Of a stretch of 64,000 nt of DNA, positions 13,665-58,493 are shown piece after piece; positions within the stretch are counted from its first letter, which is position 1, and each line of letters begins with the position of its first letter. This stretch comes from Planctomycetota bacterium (GTDB lineage Bacteria; Planctomycetota; JAJSAM01; JAJVHW01): NCBI GenBank assembly GCA_965248445.1, contig CBDFJG010000001.1, positions 384,001 through 448,000 of the forward strand. The letters are read 5' to 3'. The notes beneath the pieces were generated by a model. It was given only the letters and a program-made list of their open reading frames with translations. It searched no databases and was not told the origin of the DNA. A program made the translations under genes and the position numbers.

Positions 13665-15560
13665 CTAGCGGACGCTGCGCAGGAAGTCGAGGTACGTCTC
13701 CGGCGTGCGTGCGTTCGACCAGTCGGCGGACGCGAGGATCTCGCCCGTGTGCGGATCGACGATCACGTGCCGCGGGATCGAGATGTTCCCGACGAGTTTC
13801 TTCATGCGCGCCCGCTGCTGTACGTCGAGAGGTGCGATGGTCGGGTCCTGGATCCAGATCTGCATCAGCTCGAAGCGGTCGAGTTCCCGGCGAACTTCCG
13901 GGGACGTGGAGATCATGATCTCCAGCGCCGCGCAGTTGATTCAACCCTTGCCGGTGAAGTCGAACAGCACGTAGCGGTCGGCGGCAATCGCCCGTTCGCG
14001 CGCGCCTTCCCAGTCGTTTCGCGGCCACTCCAGGTGCGCTGTGTCACCCGCGGAGCCCCCATCGCCGACGATCCAGAGATCCTTCGGCTCGGTCTGGATG
14101 AAGCCCTCGAGGTCCGACGCCAGCGGGCGGCCGAACAGCCCCGGCACGATGTAGAGCCCGAGCGAGAAGAACATGACGGCGAACAGCATGCGCAGGGTGC
14201 CGACGGTCTCCACCTTCGTGTCCTTGGGCAGCGAGAAGATCCCGAACAGGTACATCGCCGCTGCGAACGCGCACGCCGCCCAGATCGCGAGCACCAGCGT
14301 TCGCGGCAGGATGTCCCAGTCGTGGTTGATGGCGACCGTTCTGAAGAACTTGAACGCCAGTCCGAACTCCACGAATCCCATCGTGACCTTGACCGCGTTC
14401 ATCCAGCCGCCGGCCCGCGGCATCGTCTTGAGCAGCGCCGGGAACAGCGAGCAGAAGAAGAAGGGCACCGCGACGGTGACCGAGTACGCGAGCAGTCCGA
14501 TCAGCGCGGCGGACTTGTCGCCTTCCTCGAACGTCGTGAACATGATCGCGAGGAACGGGATCGAGCAGGAGAACGAGGTCAGGGCGAGCGTCATCGCCAT
14601 GAAGAACGGCCCGATCAACCCGGTCGCCGAACTGCGCTTCGTCGTGGCGTCGGTGAGGAACCCCGGAAGACGCAGGTCGAACAGGCCGAACAGCGACAGC
14701 GCCAGCACGACGAAGAGCACGCCGACGAACACGTTGAACGCATCGCCGCGTGCCATCACGTCGAGGCTCGCTCCGAAGATCAGACCGACCACTGTCAGCG
14801 TGAAGATGATGCCGAACGCGTAGACCAGCGCCTTCGGCAGGACGGCGCCCTCCTGCTTGCTGAAGAAGCTCACGGTGACAGGGAGCAGCGGGAACACGCA
14901 CGGGGTCAGCAGCGTGATGAGACCCCAGAAGACGCCGCTGCCGATGATGCCGCCGACGCCGCCGGACATCTCCTCGGGTTCGCCGGCGCCGGGCACGACC
15001 GGAGACGCGCCGTTGCCGCCCGTCTCCGGCCCCAGCCATTCCGTGACGACGAACGACGCCTCGATCGGCCGCGTCTCCTCGGGCAGGCACTGCATCGGAT
15101 CGCACGCCATCGCGCTGAACGAGCCCCCGATCGTGCGCGGTCCGAGCGCCGCGTCCGGCGCAACCGTCACCGCGATCGAGAACGTCACCTCGGCCTCGTG
15201 CTCGATCGTGATCAGATCGGGCATGTCGGGGATCCGTGCGATCTCGTGCGGCTCCGGAAACTCGCTGAGCGCGCCCGCGGTCAGGCCCTCCGGCAGATCG
15301 AGCTCGATCCGCGGCGGCTGGCCGTACTTCAACCCGTAGAGATGCCAGTCCGGGACGATCTCGATCTTGACGCGAACTTGCGTCGTTCCGCCGGCCGGAA
15401 CGGTCGCCGGGTCCGCCGTGACCGAGACGATCTCGAACTTCTGCTCCTCCGCGAGCCCGCCGCCAAGCGGGTCGTCCTGCGCGATCGCGAGACCCGACCA
15501 CAGCGCACACGCGGCGGCGAGGGGCAGGGCGATCTTGCGAAGCAGGGCGTGGATCTTCAT
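13665..15560 (-). CDS. dsbD: DsbD-like thiol:disulfide interchange protein, candidate selenoprotein (in-frame TGA at 13941-13943)
   Basis: N-domain ACDPMQCLP; TM domain LLTPCVFP and SFSCSIP; GGWMNAVKV; thioredoxin domain FDFTGKG-TGA-INC continues in the same frame to 13665. Confidence 0.85.
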
Positions 15561-52841: not shown

Positions 52842-54662
52842 TCACTCCAGCGAGCGCAGGAACCCGCGCACACGGTCGGCCCCAACGCCATCGGGCGTGA
52901 TTTCGAGCGCCCTCTCGTACGCGCGGCGCGCCTGTTCCCGGTCGCCCTCCGCCTGGAGTGCGCGGCCCACCTGTGCGAAGAAGCGGAAACTCTCGCCCTC
53001 GTCGAGTTCCATTCCGGCGCGGTCCGCAGCGTGCATCGCCGCGGCCGCCTCACCCGGACGGCGGAGCCGCAGGAGAGACCAGGCGCGGTTGTAGTGCCCC
53101 TCCCCCGAGTCCGGACGGATGGCGAGAGCCTCGTTCGCGTACGCGAGCGCGTCTTCGTGACGCCCCAGTGCAATGGCGACATTGGACGCATTCACAAGAG
53201 GGACCGACGCGACGTGGTACTGCGGAGGCCACGGATCGATCTGGCGTTTCCATCCTTCAATTGCGGCGTCGAGGTGCCACAGAGCGCCGTTGAACGCTAC
53301 GACGGACATGTGGCGCCATGCCTCGGCCTCCGCCGCGTCGTCCGCTTCGCGGGCGCGTCTGCGCAGCGCCCAGCCGCGTTCCCGTTGCTGATTGCCCGCC
53401 CACGTGTGGGCGCGCACGCTGTCGTGCTGCTCGAGCGTCTCGGTGTAGATCGTCGCGTCGTCCCGCCAGTCCGGCACGCGCTGGGCGGCGATCGCCCCCA
53501 TGGCGAGCGCCGCCATCCAGACGGCCGCGAGCGCCGCGCGGCTGCCCACTCTCGCGACGCCGGCGCCGACGAGGAGGACGAGGCCCACCAGCGGCACGTA
53601 GAGGAAGCGCTCCGTCGTCGGGATGCCGAGATCGAACGGCCAGTTCGCGACCGGCAGGAGCGCCCCGTAGAACAGCAGCACGCCCGCGAGCGGCACACAG
53701 CGGCCGCGACGGTAGAGCACGGCCGCACCCGCCACGACTCCGAGGTGCACAGCCAACCACGCCAGTGCCACGGGATCGGCGAGCGTCCGGCTGACGGGCA
53801 AGTACCAGTCGTAGGCGGGAGCGACCGGAAGGGCGGCAAACGTCAGGTACGCGCCGAACCCCTTGAACATCGTCGCGAACACACCCGCGACGCCACCGCC
53901 GATGCGGTACCCGACGTGACTGTCCGCTCCCTCGATCAGCCCGAAGCGGTAGACGGCGTAGAGCACAGCGACGGCCACGTACGGCAGCGCGGCCCGCGCT
54001 GCCGAAGCAAGCGGCCGACGCCCGTCGCGCGGCCGAACCAGCAGGACGGCGAACACCAGGAGCGGCAGCACGATCGCCGTCTCCTTCCAGAGCATGGCGA
54101 GCACCGCGCCAGCGAGCGCAAACGCCAGCCAGCGGTCGCGGCCGTTCGAACGCAGCGCGCAATAGAGCGTCGCGGCCGCGAACGCCCCCATGGCGACGTC
54201 TGCGCGGAACCCGATCGCGGCGACCGGCTCGACGTGCATCGGATGCAGCGCCCACACCGCCGCTCCGGCAAGCGCGGCACGCGCATCGCCGAGCAGCCGT
54301 CGGAGGAGACTCAGCACCAGCACGCAAGCGAGTGCGTGCCAGACGACCGAGTGCCAGTGGAAGATCGCGGCCCCTGCGCCGAGCGCCCGGTCGAAGCGAT
54401 ACTCGAGAGTCCGCAGGGGGCGCACGATGCCGCCGTCGTCCCGGGCATCCACGGTCATGGGATCGACGAACGCCCGCCACCACTCGCCCTCTCCGCTGAC
54501 GAACGGGTTCTCGAGGATGAAACGGCTGTCATCGACCGCGAAGCCATTGGTGGCGGCGCCGTATCCGTAGACCGCGACGACGAGCGCGGTGAGAAGGAGA
54601 GCCCCGGCGGCCGGGTGACCCAGAGCGCTTGCGGCCGTCGTGGGCACGACGTCGTCGCTCAC
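52842..54662 (-). CDS. TMTC-like multi-TM (GT-C) protein with C-terminal TPRs
   Basis: FAVDD, RPL, HPMHVEPV, WKETA and ERFLYVP motifs; TPRs. Confidence 0.82.
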   Translation of the reverse strand: MSDDVVPTTAASALGHPAAGALLLTALVVAVYGYGAATNGFAVDDSRFILENPFVSGEGEWWRAFVDPMTVDARDDGGIVRPLRTLEYRFDRALGAGAAIFHWHSVVWHALACVLVLSLLRRLLGDARAALAGAAVWALHPMHVEPVAAIGFRADVAMGAFAAATLYCALRSNGRDRWLAFALAGAVLAMLWKETAIVLPLLVFAVLLVRPRDGRRPLASAARAALPYVAVAVLYAVYRFGLIEGADSHVGYRIGGGVAGVFATMFKGFGAYLTFAALPVAPAYDWYLPVSRTLADPVALAWLAVHLGVVAGAAVLYRRGRCVPLAGVLLFYGALLPVANWPFDLGIPTTERFLYVPLVGLVLLVGAGVARVGSRAALAAVWMAALAMGAIAAQRVPDWRDDATIYTETLEQHDSVRAHTWAGNQQRERGWALRRRAREADDAAEAEAWRHMSVVAFNGALWHLDAAIEGWKRQIDPWPPQYHVASVPLVNASNVAIALGRHEDALAYANEALAIRPDSGEGHYNRAWSLLRLRRPGEAAAAMHAADRAGMELDEGESFRFFAQVGRALQAEGDREQARRAYERALEITPDGVGADRVRGFLRSLE

Positions 54663-55474
54663 GCGTCCGATTCAGTTCCGGTCAGGTGTTCGCGCATACG
54701 TTCAGCCAGCCACGAGGGGCGCTCGACGGCGACGGTGTGACCGCAGCGCTCTACCTCGAGGAAGTGCGTGTCCGGGAGCAGGTCCACGAGTTCGTCGTTC
54801 AAGAAACGCGGCACGAGCGGGTCGTCCACTCCGCGAATCACGAGAGCAGCGGCGCGTACAGACTTCAGCTCTTCCCCGAAGTCGCCACCCGGGAGAAGCG
54901 TGTCGAGCAGCATGCGCCGCATGCTCTCCGGATCGTTCCGCCGCCGGAACGCGCGCAGCATCTGCTCGCGCATCTGCTCGTTCTCGCGCAGCCATTCTTC
55001 CCCCACCACGTCCGGGGTGACGACCTGGAACAGGAGGTCCTGACCCCCCGCGTCCAGCGCGTCGAGCCAGCCCTGCACGATCCAGCGCCGCAGCGCGGTC
55101 TCGCGGTGGGCACAGCCGATGAGGACCAGCCGCCGCACGCGCTCGGGCGCCGCGAGAACAACCCGGAGCGCCACACGCGATCCGAACGAGAAGCCGACGA
55201 GATCAACCTGATCCAGTTCGAGCGTGTCGAGCAGGTGGAGCAGGTCGCGACCGTGGTCAGCGGTGCGGGAGCCCTCCGGTGGCGGATCGCTCTTGCCCTG
55301 GCCGGACGCGTCGTACAGCAGGACGTCACGAACTCCGCGCAGCCGCTTCACCTGCAGGCCCCACGCGATGGTGGTCTGCGAGAGTCCGTTCAGGAACACG
55401 ACCACCGGGCCGCCCCCCTGGCGGCGCAGCTCGTAGCGGAGCCGGCGGCCGTCGGGAAGTGCGTGGACCTTCAT
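54659..55474 (-). CDS. Alpha/beta-fold hydrolase
   Basis: GFSFG nucleophile elbow, GVDD and CGH. Confidence 0.9.
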   Translation of the reverse strand: MKVHALPDGRRLRYELRRQGGGPVVVFLNGLSQTTIAWGLQVKRLRGVRDVLLYDASGQGKSDPPPEGSRTADHGRDLLHLLDTLELDQVDLVGFSFGSRVALRVVLAAPERVRRLVLIGCAHRETALRRWIVQGWLDALDAGGQDLLFQVVTPDVVGEEWLRENEQMREQMLRAFRRRNDPESMRRMLLDTLLPGGDFGEELKSVRAAALVIRGVDDPLVPRFLNDELVDLLPDTHFLEVERCGHTVAVERPSWLAERMREHLTGTESDA

Positions 55475-55551
55475 CGCGTTCAGAGAATCGCACGATTCCC
55501 GCCGCGGGCCGAACGATGTAGGCTCTCGGGACGAACACCCCGGAGGTCACC

Positions 55552-55641
55552 ATGCCGAGCTGGCTCATCTTCGCAATCGGCGCCGTCGCGGGACTGGTGC
55601 TCATCACCATCCTCAAGGGCGGAGGCGGCGGCTGAGGCTAG
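55552..55641 (+). CDS. Unannotated 29-aa membrane peptide, candidate selenoprotein MPSWLIFAIGAVAGLVLITILKGGGGG-U-G
   Basis: TAGGCT -10-like at 55519, GGAGG RBS at 55542-55546, ATG at 55552, hydrophobic helix, TGA 55633-55635, GGC, TAG 55639-55641. Confidence 0.7.
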
Positions 55642-55673
55642 CCCTCACGCCGTCCGTCGGACGGCAGCTAGCC
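55636..55673 (+). promoter_or_regulatory. SECIS-like stem-loop directly 3' of the TGA
   Basis: Outer stem GGCTAGC/GCTAGCC; inner stem GCCGTCC-GTC-GGACGGC; loop starts with GU, 20 nt after the UGA. Confidence 0.55.
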
Positions 55674-58322
55674 CTTCTTCGCGCTCTTCTTCGTGCTCTT
55701 CGTGGCGGTCTTCTTCGCCGCCTTCTTGCGCGTTGTCTTCTTGCGGGTCGTCTTCTTGGTGCCCTTGCGTCCGCCACCCGAGGCGACGCGCTTCTCGATG
55801 AGGTCGACGGCCTCCTCGACGGTCAACGCCGCGGGGTCCGCGTAGTCCCTCGGCAGCGATGCGTTGATCTCGCCGTCGGTGACGTAAGGACCGTACCGGC
55901 CCTTCAGGAGTCGGATGTCGGCGCCACCTCGCGCTTCGACCTTCTCGAACGTCTTGATCGGTTCGACCGTCCGCCGAGTGCGCTTCTCTTTCGCGAACAG
56001 CTCGAGCGCTCGAGGCAGTCCGACCGTCAGCACGCCGTCCGTCGCTTCGAGGCTGCGGTACTCCTTCTCGCGCTTCACGAAGGGGCCGTAGCGCCCGACA
56101 CCGGCCTCGATCACGCGGCCCTCGGCATCCACGCCCAACGGCCGCGGCAGCGAAAGCAGTTCCAGCGCGACGTCGAGTGTGACGGAGTCCGGCGCCATGC
56201 CCTTGAGCAACGAGACCATCTTGGGCTTCTCTTCGGACTCGTCCTTTGTGCCGAGCTGGACATACGGTCCGAAGCGCCCGTTCTTCACGAAGACCGGCTT
56301 GCCGTTCTCCGGGTGCTCGCCGATGGGCGTGTCGCCCTTGCGCACCGTCTCGAGCATCTCGATCGCCTTGTCGAGCGAGAGCTCGTCGGGCGGCGTCTTT
56401 TCGGGAACGCGCGCGGTGTCATCACCGCGTGAGATGAACGGACCGTACCGCCCGACACGAATCGCGACCGGCGTGCCGTCCGCGTCGACCCCGAGGGGGA
56501 TCGTGCAGACCGTGCGCGGATCGATCTCCTCCGCCTTCGTGTCGAGCGTGTTGCGGAGTCCGCGCTCGCCACGATAGAAGTCGTTCAGGTAGGCCAGCGT
56601 CTGTTCCTCGCCCCGCGCGATCGCGTCCAGGCGATCTTCCATGCGCGCAGTGAAGTCGAGATCGATGAGCGCGGTCAGGTGCTCGCGCATCAGGCGGACG
56701 ACGGCGAACGCCGTGAACGTCGGGACCAGGGCGTTGCCCTTCTTGAACGTGTACTCGCGCCGCTGGATCGTGTCGATGATCGACGCGTAGGTGCTCGGAC
56801 GGCCGATGCCCGACTCCTCGAGCAGCTTGACGAGCGTGGCCTCGGTGAGGCGGGCCGGCGGCGACGTCGTGTGGGACTCGGACTCGAGCCCGCCGAGTGT
56901 CAGCGGGTCGCCCTCCGCGAGCGCCGGGAGCAGGACGTCCTTGTCGGCCAGCGCGGCCTCGGGGTCATCGGATCCCTCGACGTATGCCCGCAGGAAGCCC
57001 GGGCGGTCGATCACCGTGCCGCCTGCGTGGAACACGGCGAGCTTGCCGTTCGCACTGCCGCCGACGCGAAGAACCATGCGCCGACCGACGGCGTCCCGCA
57101 TCTGGCACGCCATCGTGCGTTTCCAGATGAGCTCGTAGAGGCGCGCCTCGTCATCGCCGAGCTTCGCACGCACGTCGCTGACCGTGCGAACGTGCGAGCC
57201 GGCCGGGCGGATGGCCTCGTGGGCCTCCTGCGCGTTCTTGACCTTGTTCTTGTACTGGCGCGGGTTCGGCGGCAGTTCGTCCTCGCCGTAGGTCTTCGCG
57301 ATCGCCTGGCGGGTCATCCGGATCGCGTCGCCGGAGAGCGCGACCGAGTCCGTTCGCATGTAGGTGATGTAGCCGTTCTCGTACAGCTTCTGCGCCGCAC
57401 GCATCGTTCGGCGAGCGTCGAAGCGCAGCTTGCGGTTGCCCTCCTGCTGCAGCGTCGAGGTCGTGAACGGCGCGGCAGGCCGGCGGACGTAGGGCTTTTC
57501 CTGTGCGTCGGTCACGGAGAACGACGCGGAGCCGAGCGCGTCGGCGAGACCGCGTGCGTCGTCCCCGCCGAGCAGGGCTACCTTCGCGTTCTTCAGCTTG
57601 CCCGTGTCGGCGTCGAAGTCCTTCCCCGTCGCGATGCGCGCGCCGTCGAGTTCGATCAGGCGAGCCTGGAATGCCGCGCCGTCCTTCGTCTTGAAACTGG
57701 CGAGCAGATCCCAGTAAGTCGCTTCGTGGAAACGCATGCGCGCCTGCTCGCGCTCGACGATCACTCGGGTGGCGACGCTCTGCACGCGGCCGGCGGACAA
57801 GCGCGGCGCGATCTTGCGCCAGAGGATCGGCGAGACCTCGTAGCCGTACAGGCGGTCGATGATGCGCCGTGTCTCCTGCGCCTCGACGAGGTTCTTGTCG
57901 ATCTCGCGGGTCTCGCCGACGGCCCTCTCGATGGCCTGGCGGGTGATCTCGTGGAACACCATGCGGTGGACCGGGACCTTGGGAGCGAGCAGCTGCACGA
58001 TGTGCCAGCTGATCGCCTCGCCCTCGCGGTCCTCATCGGTCGCGAGGTAGATCGAGTCGACCGTTTTCGCCAGTTTCCGGAGCGCCGCGATGCGGTCCTT
58101 CTTGTCTGGCTGAATGACGTAGAGCGGCTTGAAATCGTCGTCGACGTTCACGCCGAGCCTGGCCCACTTCTCCTTCTTGTACTTCGCCGGTATCTGCGCA
58201 GCGTTGCCGGGCAGGTCCCGCACGTGACCCACGGTCGCTTCCACGATGTAGTCGTCGCCCAGGAAACGGCGCAGGGTGCGCGCCTTGGTCGGCGACTCGA
58301 CGATGACGAGGTGCTTGGCCAT
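55668..58322 (-). CDS. topA: DNA topoisomerase I
   Basis: IVESPTKA, ATDEDREGE, SAGRVQS, YITYMRTDS, GRYGPY repeats and a Lys-rich tail. Confidence 0.97.
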   Translation of the reverse strand: MAKHLVIVESPTKARTLRRFLGDDYIVEATVGHVRDLPGNAAQIPAKYKKEKWARLGVNVDDDFKPLYVIQPDKKDRIAALRKLAKTVDSIYLATDEDREGEAISWHIVQLLAPKVPVHRMVFHEITRQAIERAVGETREIDKNLVEAQETRRIIDRLYGYEVSPILWRKIAPRLSAGRVQSVATRVIVEREQARMRFHEATYWDLLASFKTKDGAAFQARLIELDGARIATGKDFDADTGKLKNAKVALLGGDDARGLADALGSASFSVTDAQEKPYVRRPAAPFTTSTLQQEGNRKLRFDARRTMRAAQKLYENGYITYMRTDSVALSGDAIRMTRQAIAKTYGEDELPPNPRQYKNKVKNAQEAHEAIRPAGSHVRTVSDVRAKLGDDEARLYELIWKRTMACQMRDAVGRRMVLRVGGSANGKLAVFHAGGTVIDRPGFLRAYVEGSDDPEAALADKDVLLPALAEGDPLTLGGLESESHTTSPPARLTEATLVKLLEESGIGRPSTYASIIDTIQRREYTFKKGNALVPTFTAFAVVRLMREHLTALIDLDFTARMEDRLDAIARGEEQTLAYLNDFYRGERGLRNTLDTKAEEIDPRTVCTIPLGVDADGTPVAIRVGRYGPFISRGDDTARVPEKTPPDELSLDKAIEMLETVRKGDTPIGEHPENGKPVFVKNGRFGPYVQLGTKDESEEKPKMVSLLKGMAPDSVTLDVALELLSLPRPLGVDAEGRVIEAGVGRYGPFVKREKEYRSLEATDGVLTVGLPRALELFAKEKRTRRTVEPIKTFEKVEARGGADIRLLKGRYGPYVTDGEINASLPRDYADPAALTVEEAVDLIEKRVASGGGRKGTKKTTRKKTTRKKAAKKTATKSTKKSAKKG

Positions 58323-58493
58323 CTGTGGTGCGGGATTCTCCGGTTCGGCGGGCGTTCGTGGACTCGCGGCGCACGCCTCCATGGGTGGCGCGAGCGGAAA
58401 GGGTTACCCGAGATTCGCGGGTCGGACCATGATCTTCCCGGGCGGCAACACCGCTCGCCCCGCGTGCTCCGTAGGAGCAGAGGAGTCGAGAAA

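Follow-up and report, generated by a model that had tools for sequence, protein, structure and literature searches.

Within the 64,000-nucleotide stretch of DNA analysed here (the window), a gap separates an alpha/beta-hydrolase gene (54659..55474, minus strand; PF00561, E 1.9e-21) from an open reading frame at 55668..58382 (minus strand) that we take to be topA-like from its label in an earlier note on this sequence and from its motifs. The gap holds a small ORF on the plus strand (55552..55641), divergent from the hydrolase gene and convergent with the topA-like gene. The earlier note had read it as a complete expression unit for a hidden selenopeptide, and all of the features it named are indeed present: a −10-like box, TAGGCT (55519..55524, plus strand); a Shine-Dalgarno sequence, GGAGG (55542..55546, plus strand); a start codon, ATG, at 55552; and 27 codons that specify one hydrophobic helix, one lysine, and five glycines (K-GGGGG), followed by an in-frame TGA (55633–55635, plus strand), a GGC codon, and TAG (55639–55641). 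The product is 27 residues long should the TGA be a stop, and 29 residues with selenocysteine (Sec, U) at position 28 if it is recoded. The ORF has a GC3 of 0.89, and the helix has a peak 17-residue hydropathy of 2.84, with no charge before it and +1 after it.

A sigma-70 consensus scan of positions 55300–55900 did not find a full promoter, and the −10 box is credited on its conservation instead; a TAnnnT sequence lies 12–39 nt upstream of the start (within 60 nt) in all seven homologs described below, compared with 716 of 20,000 random 60-mers (3.6%). GGAGG or GAGG is present 10–14 nt upstream of the start in six of the seven, the exception being the G001 homolog, which is devoid of a Shine-Dalgarno sequence and has its −10 box 12 nt ahead of a GTG start, an arrangement that would fit a leaderless mRNA. 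We judge the locus to be a real, separately promoted small gene. The same letters occur at this locus in contigs from four runs of one study, which are probably the source DNA and so are not independent.

Homologs were identified, using the neighbouring genes as anchors, in five of eight genomes of the family (the source genome, G001, G005, G006, and G007). A profile search of 401 genomes of the phylum recovered the same family members with no credible match outside the family, and a pattern scan of metagenomes returned 12 loci that include two further members (L204 and L209), both beside the same hydrolase; in each of the seven homologous loci the hydrolase gene is either the immediate neighbour or separated by a single small gene. 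The peptides are 29–35 residues long and share 29–59% identity with that of L209. No match was found in the other three family genomes (G002, G003, and G004, which are 87, 76, and 89% complete), from which absence of the gene does not follow. Those same three genomes contain no close match to this topA (the best matches are fragmentary, at 41–50% identity), and different genes lie upstream of their hydrolase. A search of 41 relatives at the DNA level found nothing beyond the start of the hydrolase and the low-complexity tail of topA; a covariance model applied to 150 genomes recovered no further member and failed to detect the G001 homolog; a search with P0004 returned itself as the sole match; and a loose pattern applied to 17 genomes of the class gave matches no commoner than in a reversed control, which we treat as leads only. 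Among 1.84 billion representative proteins, the profile has three matches, none of them named and each ending exactly at the TGA, and the exact peptide is absent from 15 billion predicted proteins.

Comparison of the seven homologs shows that the TGA is invariant, that the next codon is GGC or AGC (glycine or serine), and that a second stop follows within two codons of the TGA (TAG in five, TGA in two), such that the tails read KGGGGG-U-G, CRT-U-G, RCGGG-U-GG, RSGG-U-S (twice), RSGG-U-SS, and CKGGGG-U-G. Sec would be second from the C-terminus in five homologs and third in two. The search of related genomes called for by the earlier note has therefore yielded a conserved TGA–Gly/Ser–second stop arrangement, and the contrary outcome, TAA or TAG at this position with no conserved glycine after it, did not occur. 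By comparison, only nine of 2098 ordinary long genes of this genome that end in TGA are followed by a glycine or serine codon and a near stop. The second TGA in the G001 and G005 homologs lies only 8–12 nt from the hairpin loop, which is too close for recoding under the model, and so should act as a stop. The helices have hydropathies of 2.8–3.3, and the charge pattern (0 before, +1 after) is common to all seven; the glycine run is missing from the G005 homolog. Cysteine precedes the Sec position in three homologs (as CxxU, CxxxU, and Cx5U) and is absent from the present copy and the three others, so that a resolving residue is not conserved.

Downstream of the TGA, the two-stem hairpin folds as the earlier note had drawn it. 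Its apical portion is a 7-bp stem-loop in the 3′ UTR (55649..55665, plus strand) with a GUC loop (55656–55658) that begins 20 nt past the TGA, and its lower stem pairs positions 55636–55642 with 55667–55673 (55636..55673 overall, plus strand). The apical stem-loop is kept in the homologs, but the lower stem is particular to this genome, where its 3′ arm coincides in part with the stop codon of topA. The 40-nt segment directly downstream of the TGA (55636–55675) folds at −22.9 kcal/mol (z −4.1), and none of 200 shuffles is as good. A published model of bacterial SECIS elements specifies a loop of 3–9 nt, a stem of 4–16 bp, a G in the first two loop positions, a distance of 16–37 nt from the UGA, and an MFE of no more than −7.5 kcal/mol (PMC13188914), and the candidate (GUC, 7 bp, 20 nt, −22.9 kcal/mol) falls within each of these limits. 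In all seven homologs there is a fully paired stem of 7–8 bp with a (G)GUC loop 17–21 nt from the TGA. Alignment of the seven apical stems has 53 of 53 cells paired, with three of eight pairs changed on both sides (three compensatory pairs) and an invariant (G)GUC loop, although the structure guided the alignment and the homologs are related to one another, such that the counts are not independent. The covariation score is reached by none of 500 shuffles, and the count of changed pairs by 24 of 500; slid registers of the alignment pair only 25–57%. A strict hairpin test, defined after the candidate had been seen, is passed by the five genome homologs and by nine of the 2098 ordinary TGA stops of this genome.

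These observations bear on whether the locus encodes simply a 27-residue membrane protein that ends at the TGA, with a hairpin that serves both it and topA in termination or in protecting the mRNA end. In this genome TGA is used more often than any other stop codon (2098 of 3337 long ORFs), the overlap of the lower stem with the topA stop would suit a shared element, and no homolog with cysteine in place of Sec was found either in the 401 phylum genomes or in the 1.84 billion representatives, where such short ORFs are rarely called. The position of the loop argues otherwise, because it is fixed at 17–21 nt from the TGA, whereas in four genomes the topA stop is 35, 55, 62, or 118 nt downstream of that codon, and in G005 topA is not the neighbour, a different gene occupying the place; the hairpin thus belongs to the TGA and not to the topA stop, and it is not conserved merely as a topA terminator, the outcome that the earlier note had set against its own proposal. 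No terminators are called in 55300–55900 and the hairpin has no U tract, and the invariance of the loop, the covariation of the stems, and the restriction of the codons past the TGA to glycine or serine plus a stop also count against this reading. GUC-loop hairpins with at least seven pairs number only 87 in 5.4 Mb, so the element is not a dispersed repeat, and a REP-like reading was dropped on this count. An Rfam search gave no match near a gathering score. We consider termination at the TGA very improbable as an account of this locus.

The genome itself has the machinery for Sec insertion: selA, selB, selC (tRNA-Sec), and selD are all present and over their family cut-offs, the absence that would have spoken against recoding was not encountered, the selD gene has an in-frame TGA of its own, and SelA is found in 17 of 17 genomes of the class. 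Of the 17 matches to AhpC/TSA redoxins in this genome, five are interrupted by an in-frame TGA at a W/T-U-x-x position (UxxC selenoproteins), and the loops of their hairpins are GUG, GGU, and GGU at 21 nt, CGUGU at 23 nt, and GGUC at 31 nt; the GUC loop of the candidate at 20 nt fits with these. Two proteins elsewhere may be mentioned here. A redoxin in G004 (L116:1521-2303, minus strand) ends in PFG-U-SVDF, a motif in which cysteine is the usual residue at the U position, and has the same GUC hairpin at 20 nt, and a thioredoxin-like protein in G015 (L115:3-479, plus strand) ends in GSS-U-S with the same (G)GUC hairpin. Within the window, a DsbD-like protein has an in-frame TGA at 13943 (minus strand) in the context G-U-I-N-C (UxxC), with 91 residues beyond it, and its first hairpin loop is CAUG, which is outside the SECIS model; a scan of the window for CxxU and UxxC yielded almost entirely noise.

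The sel machinery, the TGA–Gly/Ser–second stop arrangement in every homolog, and the covarying hairpin lend strong support to Sec recoding, and we regard it as highly probable that the UGA at 55633–55635 is decoded as Sec in a SelB-dependent manner. The product is very probably a Sec-containing 29-residue membrane peptide of an uncatalogued family. The recoding mechanism is ordinary, the RNA element showing no difference from canonical bacterial SECIS/SelB recoding, and it is the product that is unusual. In the mechanism that we envisage, SelB would bind the GUC-loop hairpin 20 nt downstream and the UGA would be read as Sec to give a single-pass membrane peptide, for which the charge pattern and the positive-inside rule predict an N-out/C-in topology; Sec would accordingly be held by a short tether of glycines on the cytoplasmic side of the membrane. 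Recoding could alternatively matter for its own sake, as a selenium-status switch in which a 27-residue form prevails when selenium is short and the 29-residue Sec form when it is plentiful, their ratio tuning a membrane partner, or else as a selenium store. Sec adds only two to three terminal residues, so that both forms would insert in the membrane, and in a genome rich in Sec genes the allocation of selenium could matter. Nonetheless, a same-strand downstream gene is seen only in G005, there being no conserved one, which eliminates a role as an attenuator; one selenium per peptide makes a poor store; and the cysteine near Sec in three of the seven homologs points to chemistry. A switch or store therefore seems improbable to us.

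The earlier note had ventured that the family might be undescribed, and this has held up so far as the sources extend. Neither Pfam nor NCBIfam 20.0 has a family over cut-off for the small-ORF group, and none of the 119 prokaryotic selenoprotein families of a 2026 catalogue, compared by name and motif, resembles this peptide; nor is such a peptide described in the part of the literature surveyed (including PMC12013277 and PMC13326102). Pfam yields no families for the peptide even at E 10, and the homologs match no selenoprotein family. A weak match to the MpaA1 daptide precursor model NF041805 (E 0.016) raises the question of whether the peptide is cleaved at its glycine run, as a RiPP precursor or sorting signal might be, and the 2026 catalogue does include a selenobacteriocin with an SGUG motif. 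The score against NF041805 is, though, 14.7 bits relative to a cut-off of 40, TIGR04081 has no match, no modifying enzyme, peptidase, or exporter is seen beside the gene, and the core would amount to two residues; it is hard to give this reading any appreciable credence.

The resemblance to eukaryotic SelS and SelK proposed in the earlier note is one of layout. SelK and SelS are themselves grouped by layout and not by sequence, with an N-terminal helix, a cytosolic tail rich in glycine, proline, and basic residues, and Sec second or third from the end (PMC10650576, PMC9344019); the Sec of SelS engages in a selenylsulfide and that of SelK in a diselenide between two molecules (PMC10650576, PMC9344019, 10.1101/2021.05.15.444318). 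They are 94 (SelK) and 189 (SelS) residues long, and the catalytic role of SelK is described as still unknown (10.1101/2021.05.15.444318). The small-ORF group shares with them the single N-terminal helix, a C-terminus predicted to be cytosolic, the glycine-rich end, and Sec second or third from the end, and it contains both cysteine-free (SelK-like) and cysteine-bearing (SelS-like) members. It differs in its length of 29–35 residues, in its tail of about seven residues (five glycines and one lysine in the present copy) with no proline-rich partner-binding region, in giving no sequence match to them, and in having a bacterial SECIS that adjoins the UGA. The peptide thus resembles SelK and SelS by layout only and is not placed in either family.

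Among prokaryotic proteins, Sec at or near the C-terminus is shared with SaoC (NF040734), KCU-star (NF033934), and the UXX-star families (NF041114, NF041211), in which the SECIS consequently lies in the 3′ UTR; SaoC and KCU-star provide the precedent for this arrangement, and the SaoC hairpin combines a stem of 7 bp with the loop GGU (10.1101/2022.07.06.499078). Those proteins differ in carrying CU or other motifs, and a one-helix membrane peptide is not described among them in the material consulted. None of the NCBIfam models for SaoC, KCU-star, UXX-star, selenobacteriocin, or the Tso families is among the matches at E 10. The FeoB-associated family PF12669 and other TM-basic-GGC peptides, which combine a small helix, basic residues, glycines, and cysteine, are alike in these respects, but the small ORF carries one Sec and not a cysteine cluster; identity with PF12669 was rejected, there being no match at this locus (E 10) or in any homolog.

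A pattern scan of the genome collection returned at least 120 loci, 18 of which passed a hairpin filter, and most of these are chance-like. Two look-alike groups, B and C, were traced from that scan, with selA present in five of five genomes tested. Group B, from another phylum, consists of helices of 25–28 residues that mostly end in RGGG-U-G-x-C (UxxC, also UxC), and it is represented by L335–L353, L355 (e.g. L340:1760-1840, plus strand), L378, L382, L386, and L390. Among the best 22 of the 30 anti-sigma loci listed, 20 have both the peptide and a GGUC-type hairpin 17–20 nt on, and 20 place the peptide in an ECF-sigma/thioredoxin operon. The order of genes at L340 is ECF sigma, RsrA-like zf-HC2 anti-sigma, peptide, thioredoxin, FmdB zinc ribbon, and a TlpA-like gene, the thioredoxin and TlpA-like labels resting on WCGPC and WCPPC motifs respectively. 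After the TGA, glycine is coded in four ways and cysteine in two, and the final stop is TGA, TAA, or TAG; these synonymous codons and varied stops point to coding selection past the UGA. Additional members with a TGA, set among other genes, are found with the group B profile. Neither Pfam nor NCBIfam has a family over cut-off for the group, which appears to be a strong and independent selenopeptide family that is not catalogued.

Homology between group B and the small-ORF group is not supported. The group B profile ranks this locus 61st of 73,653 TGA windows (fourth without composition correction) and matched none of the small-ORF family in 401 genomes, and a profile-profile alignment of the two covers only nine tail columns. 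The two groups may be convergent.

With this context, the most likely job of the small-ORF peptide seems to us to be that of a membrane-tethered redox selenol recycled by thioredoxin, a reading that we rate slightly better than even overall and, with Sec granted, at that level or a little above it. The selenol would attack either a disulfide in a membrane protein partner or a peroxide in the lipid phase, and would then form a selenylsulfide, with its own cysteine where there is one and otherwise with that of the partner, or an intermolecular diselenide; the oxidised selenopeptide could then be recycled by thioredoxin. The cysteine beside Sec in three of seven homologs, the UxxC motif and thioredoxin operon of group B, and the SelS/SelK precedent all appear to favour such a role. 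Counting against it, the present copy contains no cysteine, the hydrolase and topA neighbours give no redox context for the small ORF, and the redox operon belongs to group B, which may be unrelated.

The principal competing possibility is that Sec is inserted but that the selenol is a soft-metal ligand (for Cu(I), Ag, or Hg) at the membrane, serving as a buffer for a metal transporter or handing metal off to it. The group B profile also retrieves cysteine proteins built as TM-basic-GG-C-G/C, some of which have a YHS domain or a tail rich in histidine, and which adjoin genes with N-termini that look by eye like those of heavy-metal ATPases (L379, L388, L389, L392–L394), and the dispensability of a resolving cysteine in four of seven homologs would suit a ligand. 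These cysteine look-alikes, however, match mostly via the low-complexity helix, the main context of group B is thioredoxin and an RsrA-like anti-sigma, and no metal transporter is present beside the gene in the seven loci examined. We view a role in metal binding as unlikely, while deserving some weight. For the helix part of the small cysteine-containing membrane proteins at L379, L388, L389, and L392–L394, there is no matching family.

Group C comprises proteins of about 100 residues in which a single helix is followed by a tail rich in alanine and proline that ends in GG-U-G(S) (L269:701-1018, plus strand; L203:472-801, minus strand; L398–L406; and L408). Of 30 loci, 28 have a readable stop, and ten of these end in GG-TGA, all ten of which have a 7–8 bp hairpin at 16–18 nt and a second stop within two codons. 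The 18 others lack the GG and have no near second stop, and of the 12 among them that end in TGA, three pass a hairpin test with loose criteria. By analogy of layout, we consider group C the closest bacterial match to SelK and SelS, and apparently a better fit than the small ORF.

It is conceivable that the small-ORF peptide and its look-alikes belong to a hidden bacterial class of membrane-tethered 'GG-U-G' selenopeptides and tails, a prokaryotic counterpart of SelK and SelS, in which a portable Gly-Sec-Gly end with its own SECIS has been placed on helices of 25–35 residues (the small-ORF and UxxC groups), on helix-plus-Pro/Ala-tail proteins of about 100 residues, and on pilin-like and thioredoxin-like proteins in several phyla, to perform redox chemistry at the inner membrane face. 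We offer this broader proposal tentatively, as somewhat short of an even chance. Since selenoprotein searches rely on cysteine homologs and called ORFs, they cannot see a 27-codon ORF whose Sec is placed two residues before the end, and the present finding shows that entire families of very small membrane selenopeptides go unnoticed. A natural peptide of 29 residues with the SelK layout, in cysteine-free and cysteine-bearing versions, is moreover accessible by synthesis, and synthetic versions would allow a direct test of Sec on a glycine tether at a membrane surface.

Several other proteins came to light in the course of this analysis. At L207:451-1032 (plus strand) and L238, a prepilin-type protein (N_methyl, DUF1559) ends in PPPSGGG-U-G and is followed by a GGUC hairpin; selA is present in the genome. 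Zinc-ribbon proteins at L221 and L241 (TGA at 1007, plus strand), which are FmdB-like by eye, end in CFSGG-U-GIG and likewise have a GGUC hairpin. Finally, five signal-peptide-like ORFs of G000 are cut by a TGA just past the hydrophobic stretch, with an open frame, often containing cysteine, beyond it (C4:226830, minus; C4:1662919, plus; C1:334643, minus; C2:723269, plus; and C2:229130, plus). These interrupted ORFs are further candidates for hidden selenoproteins, and the first three of them have G-loop hairpins.
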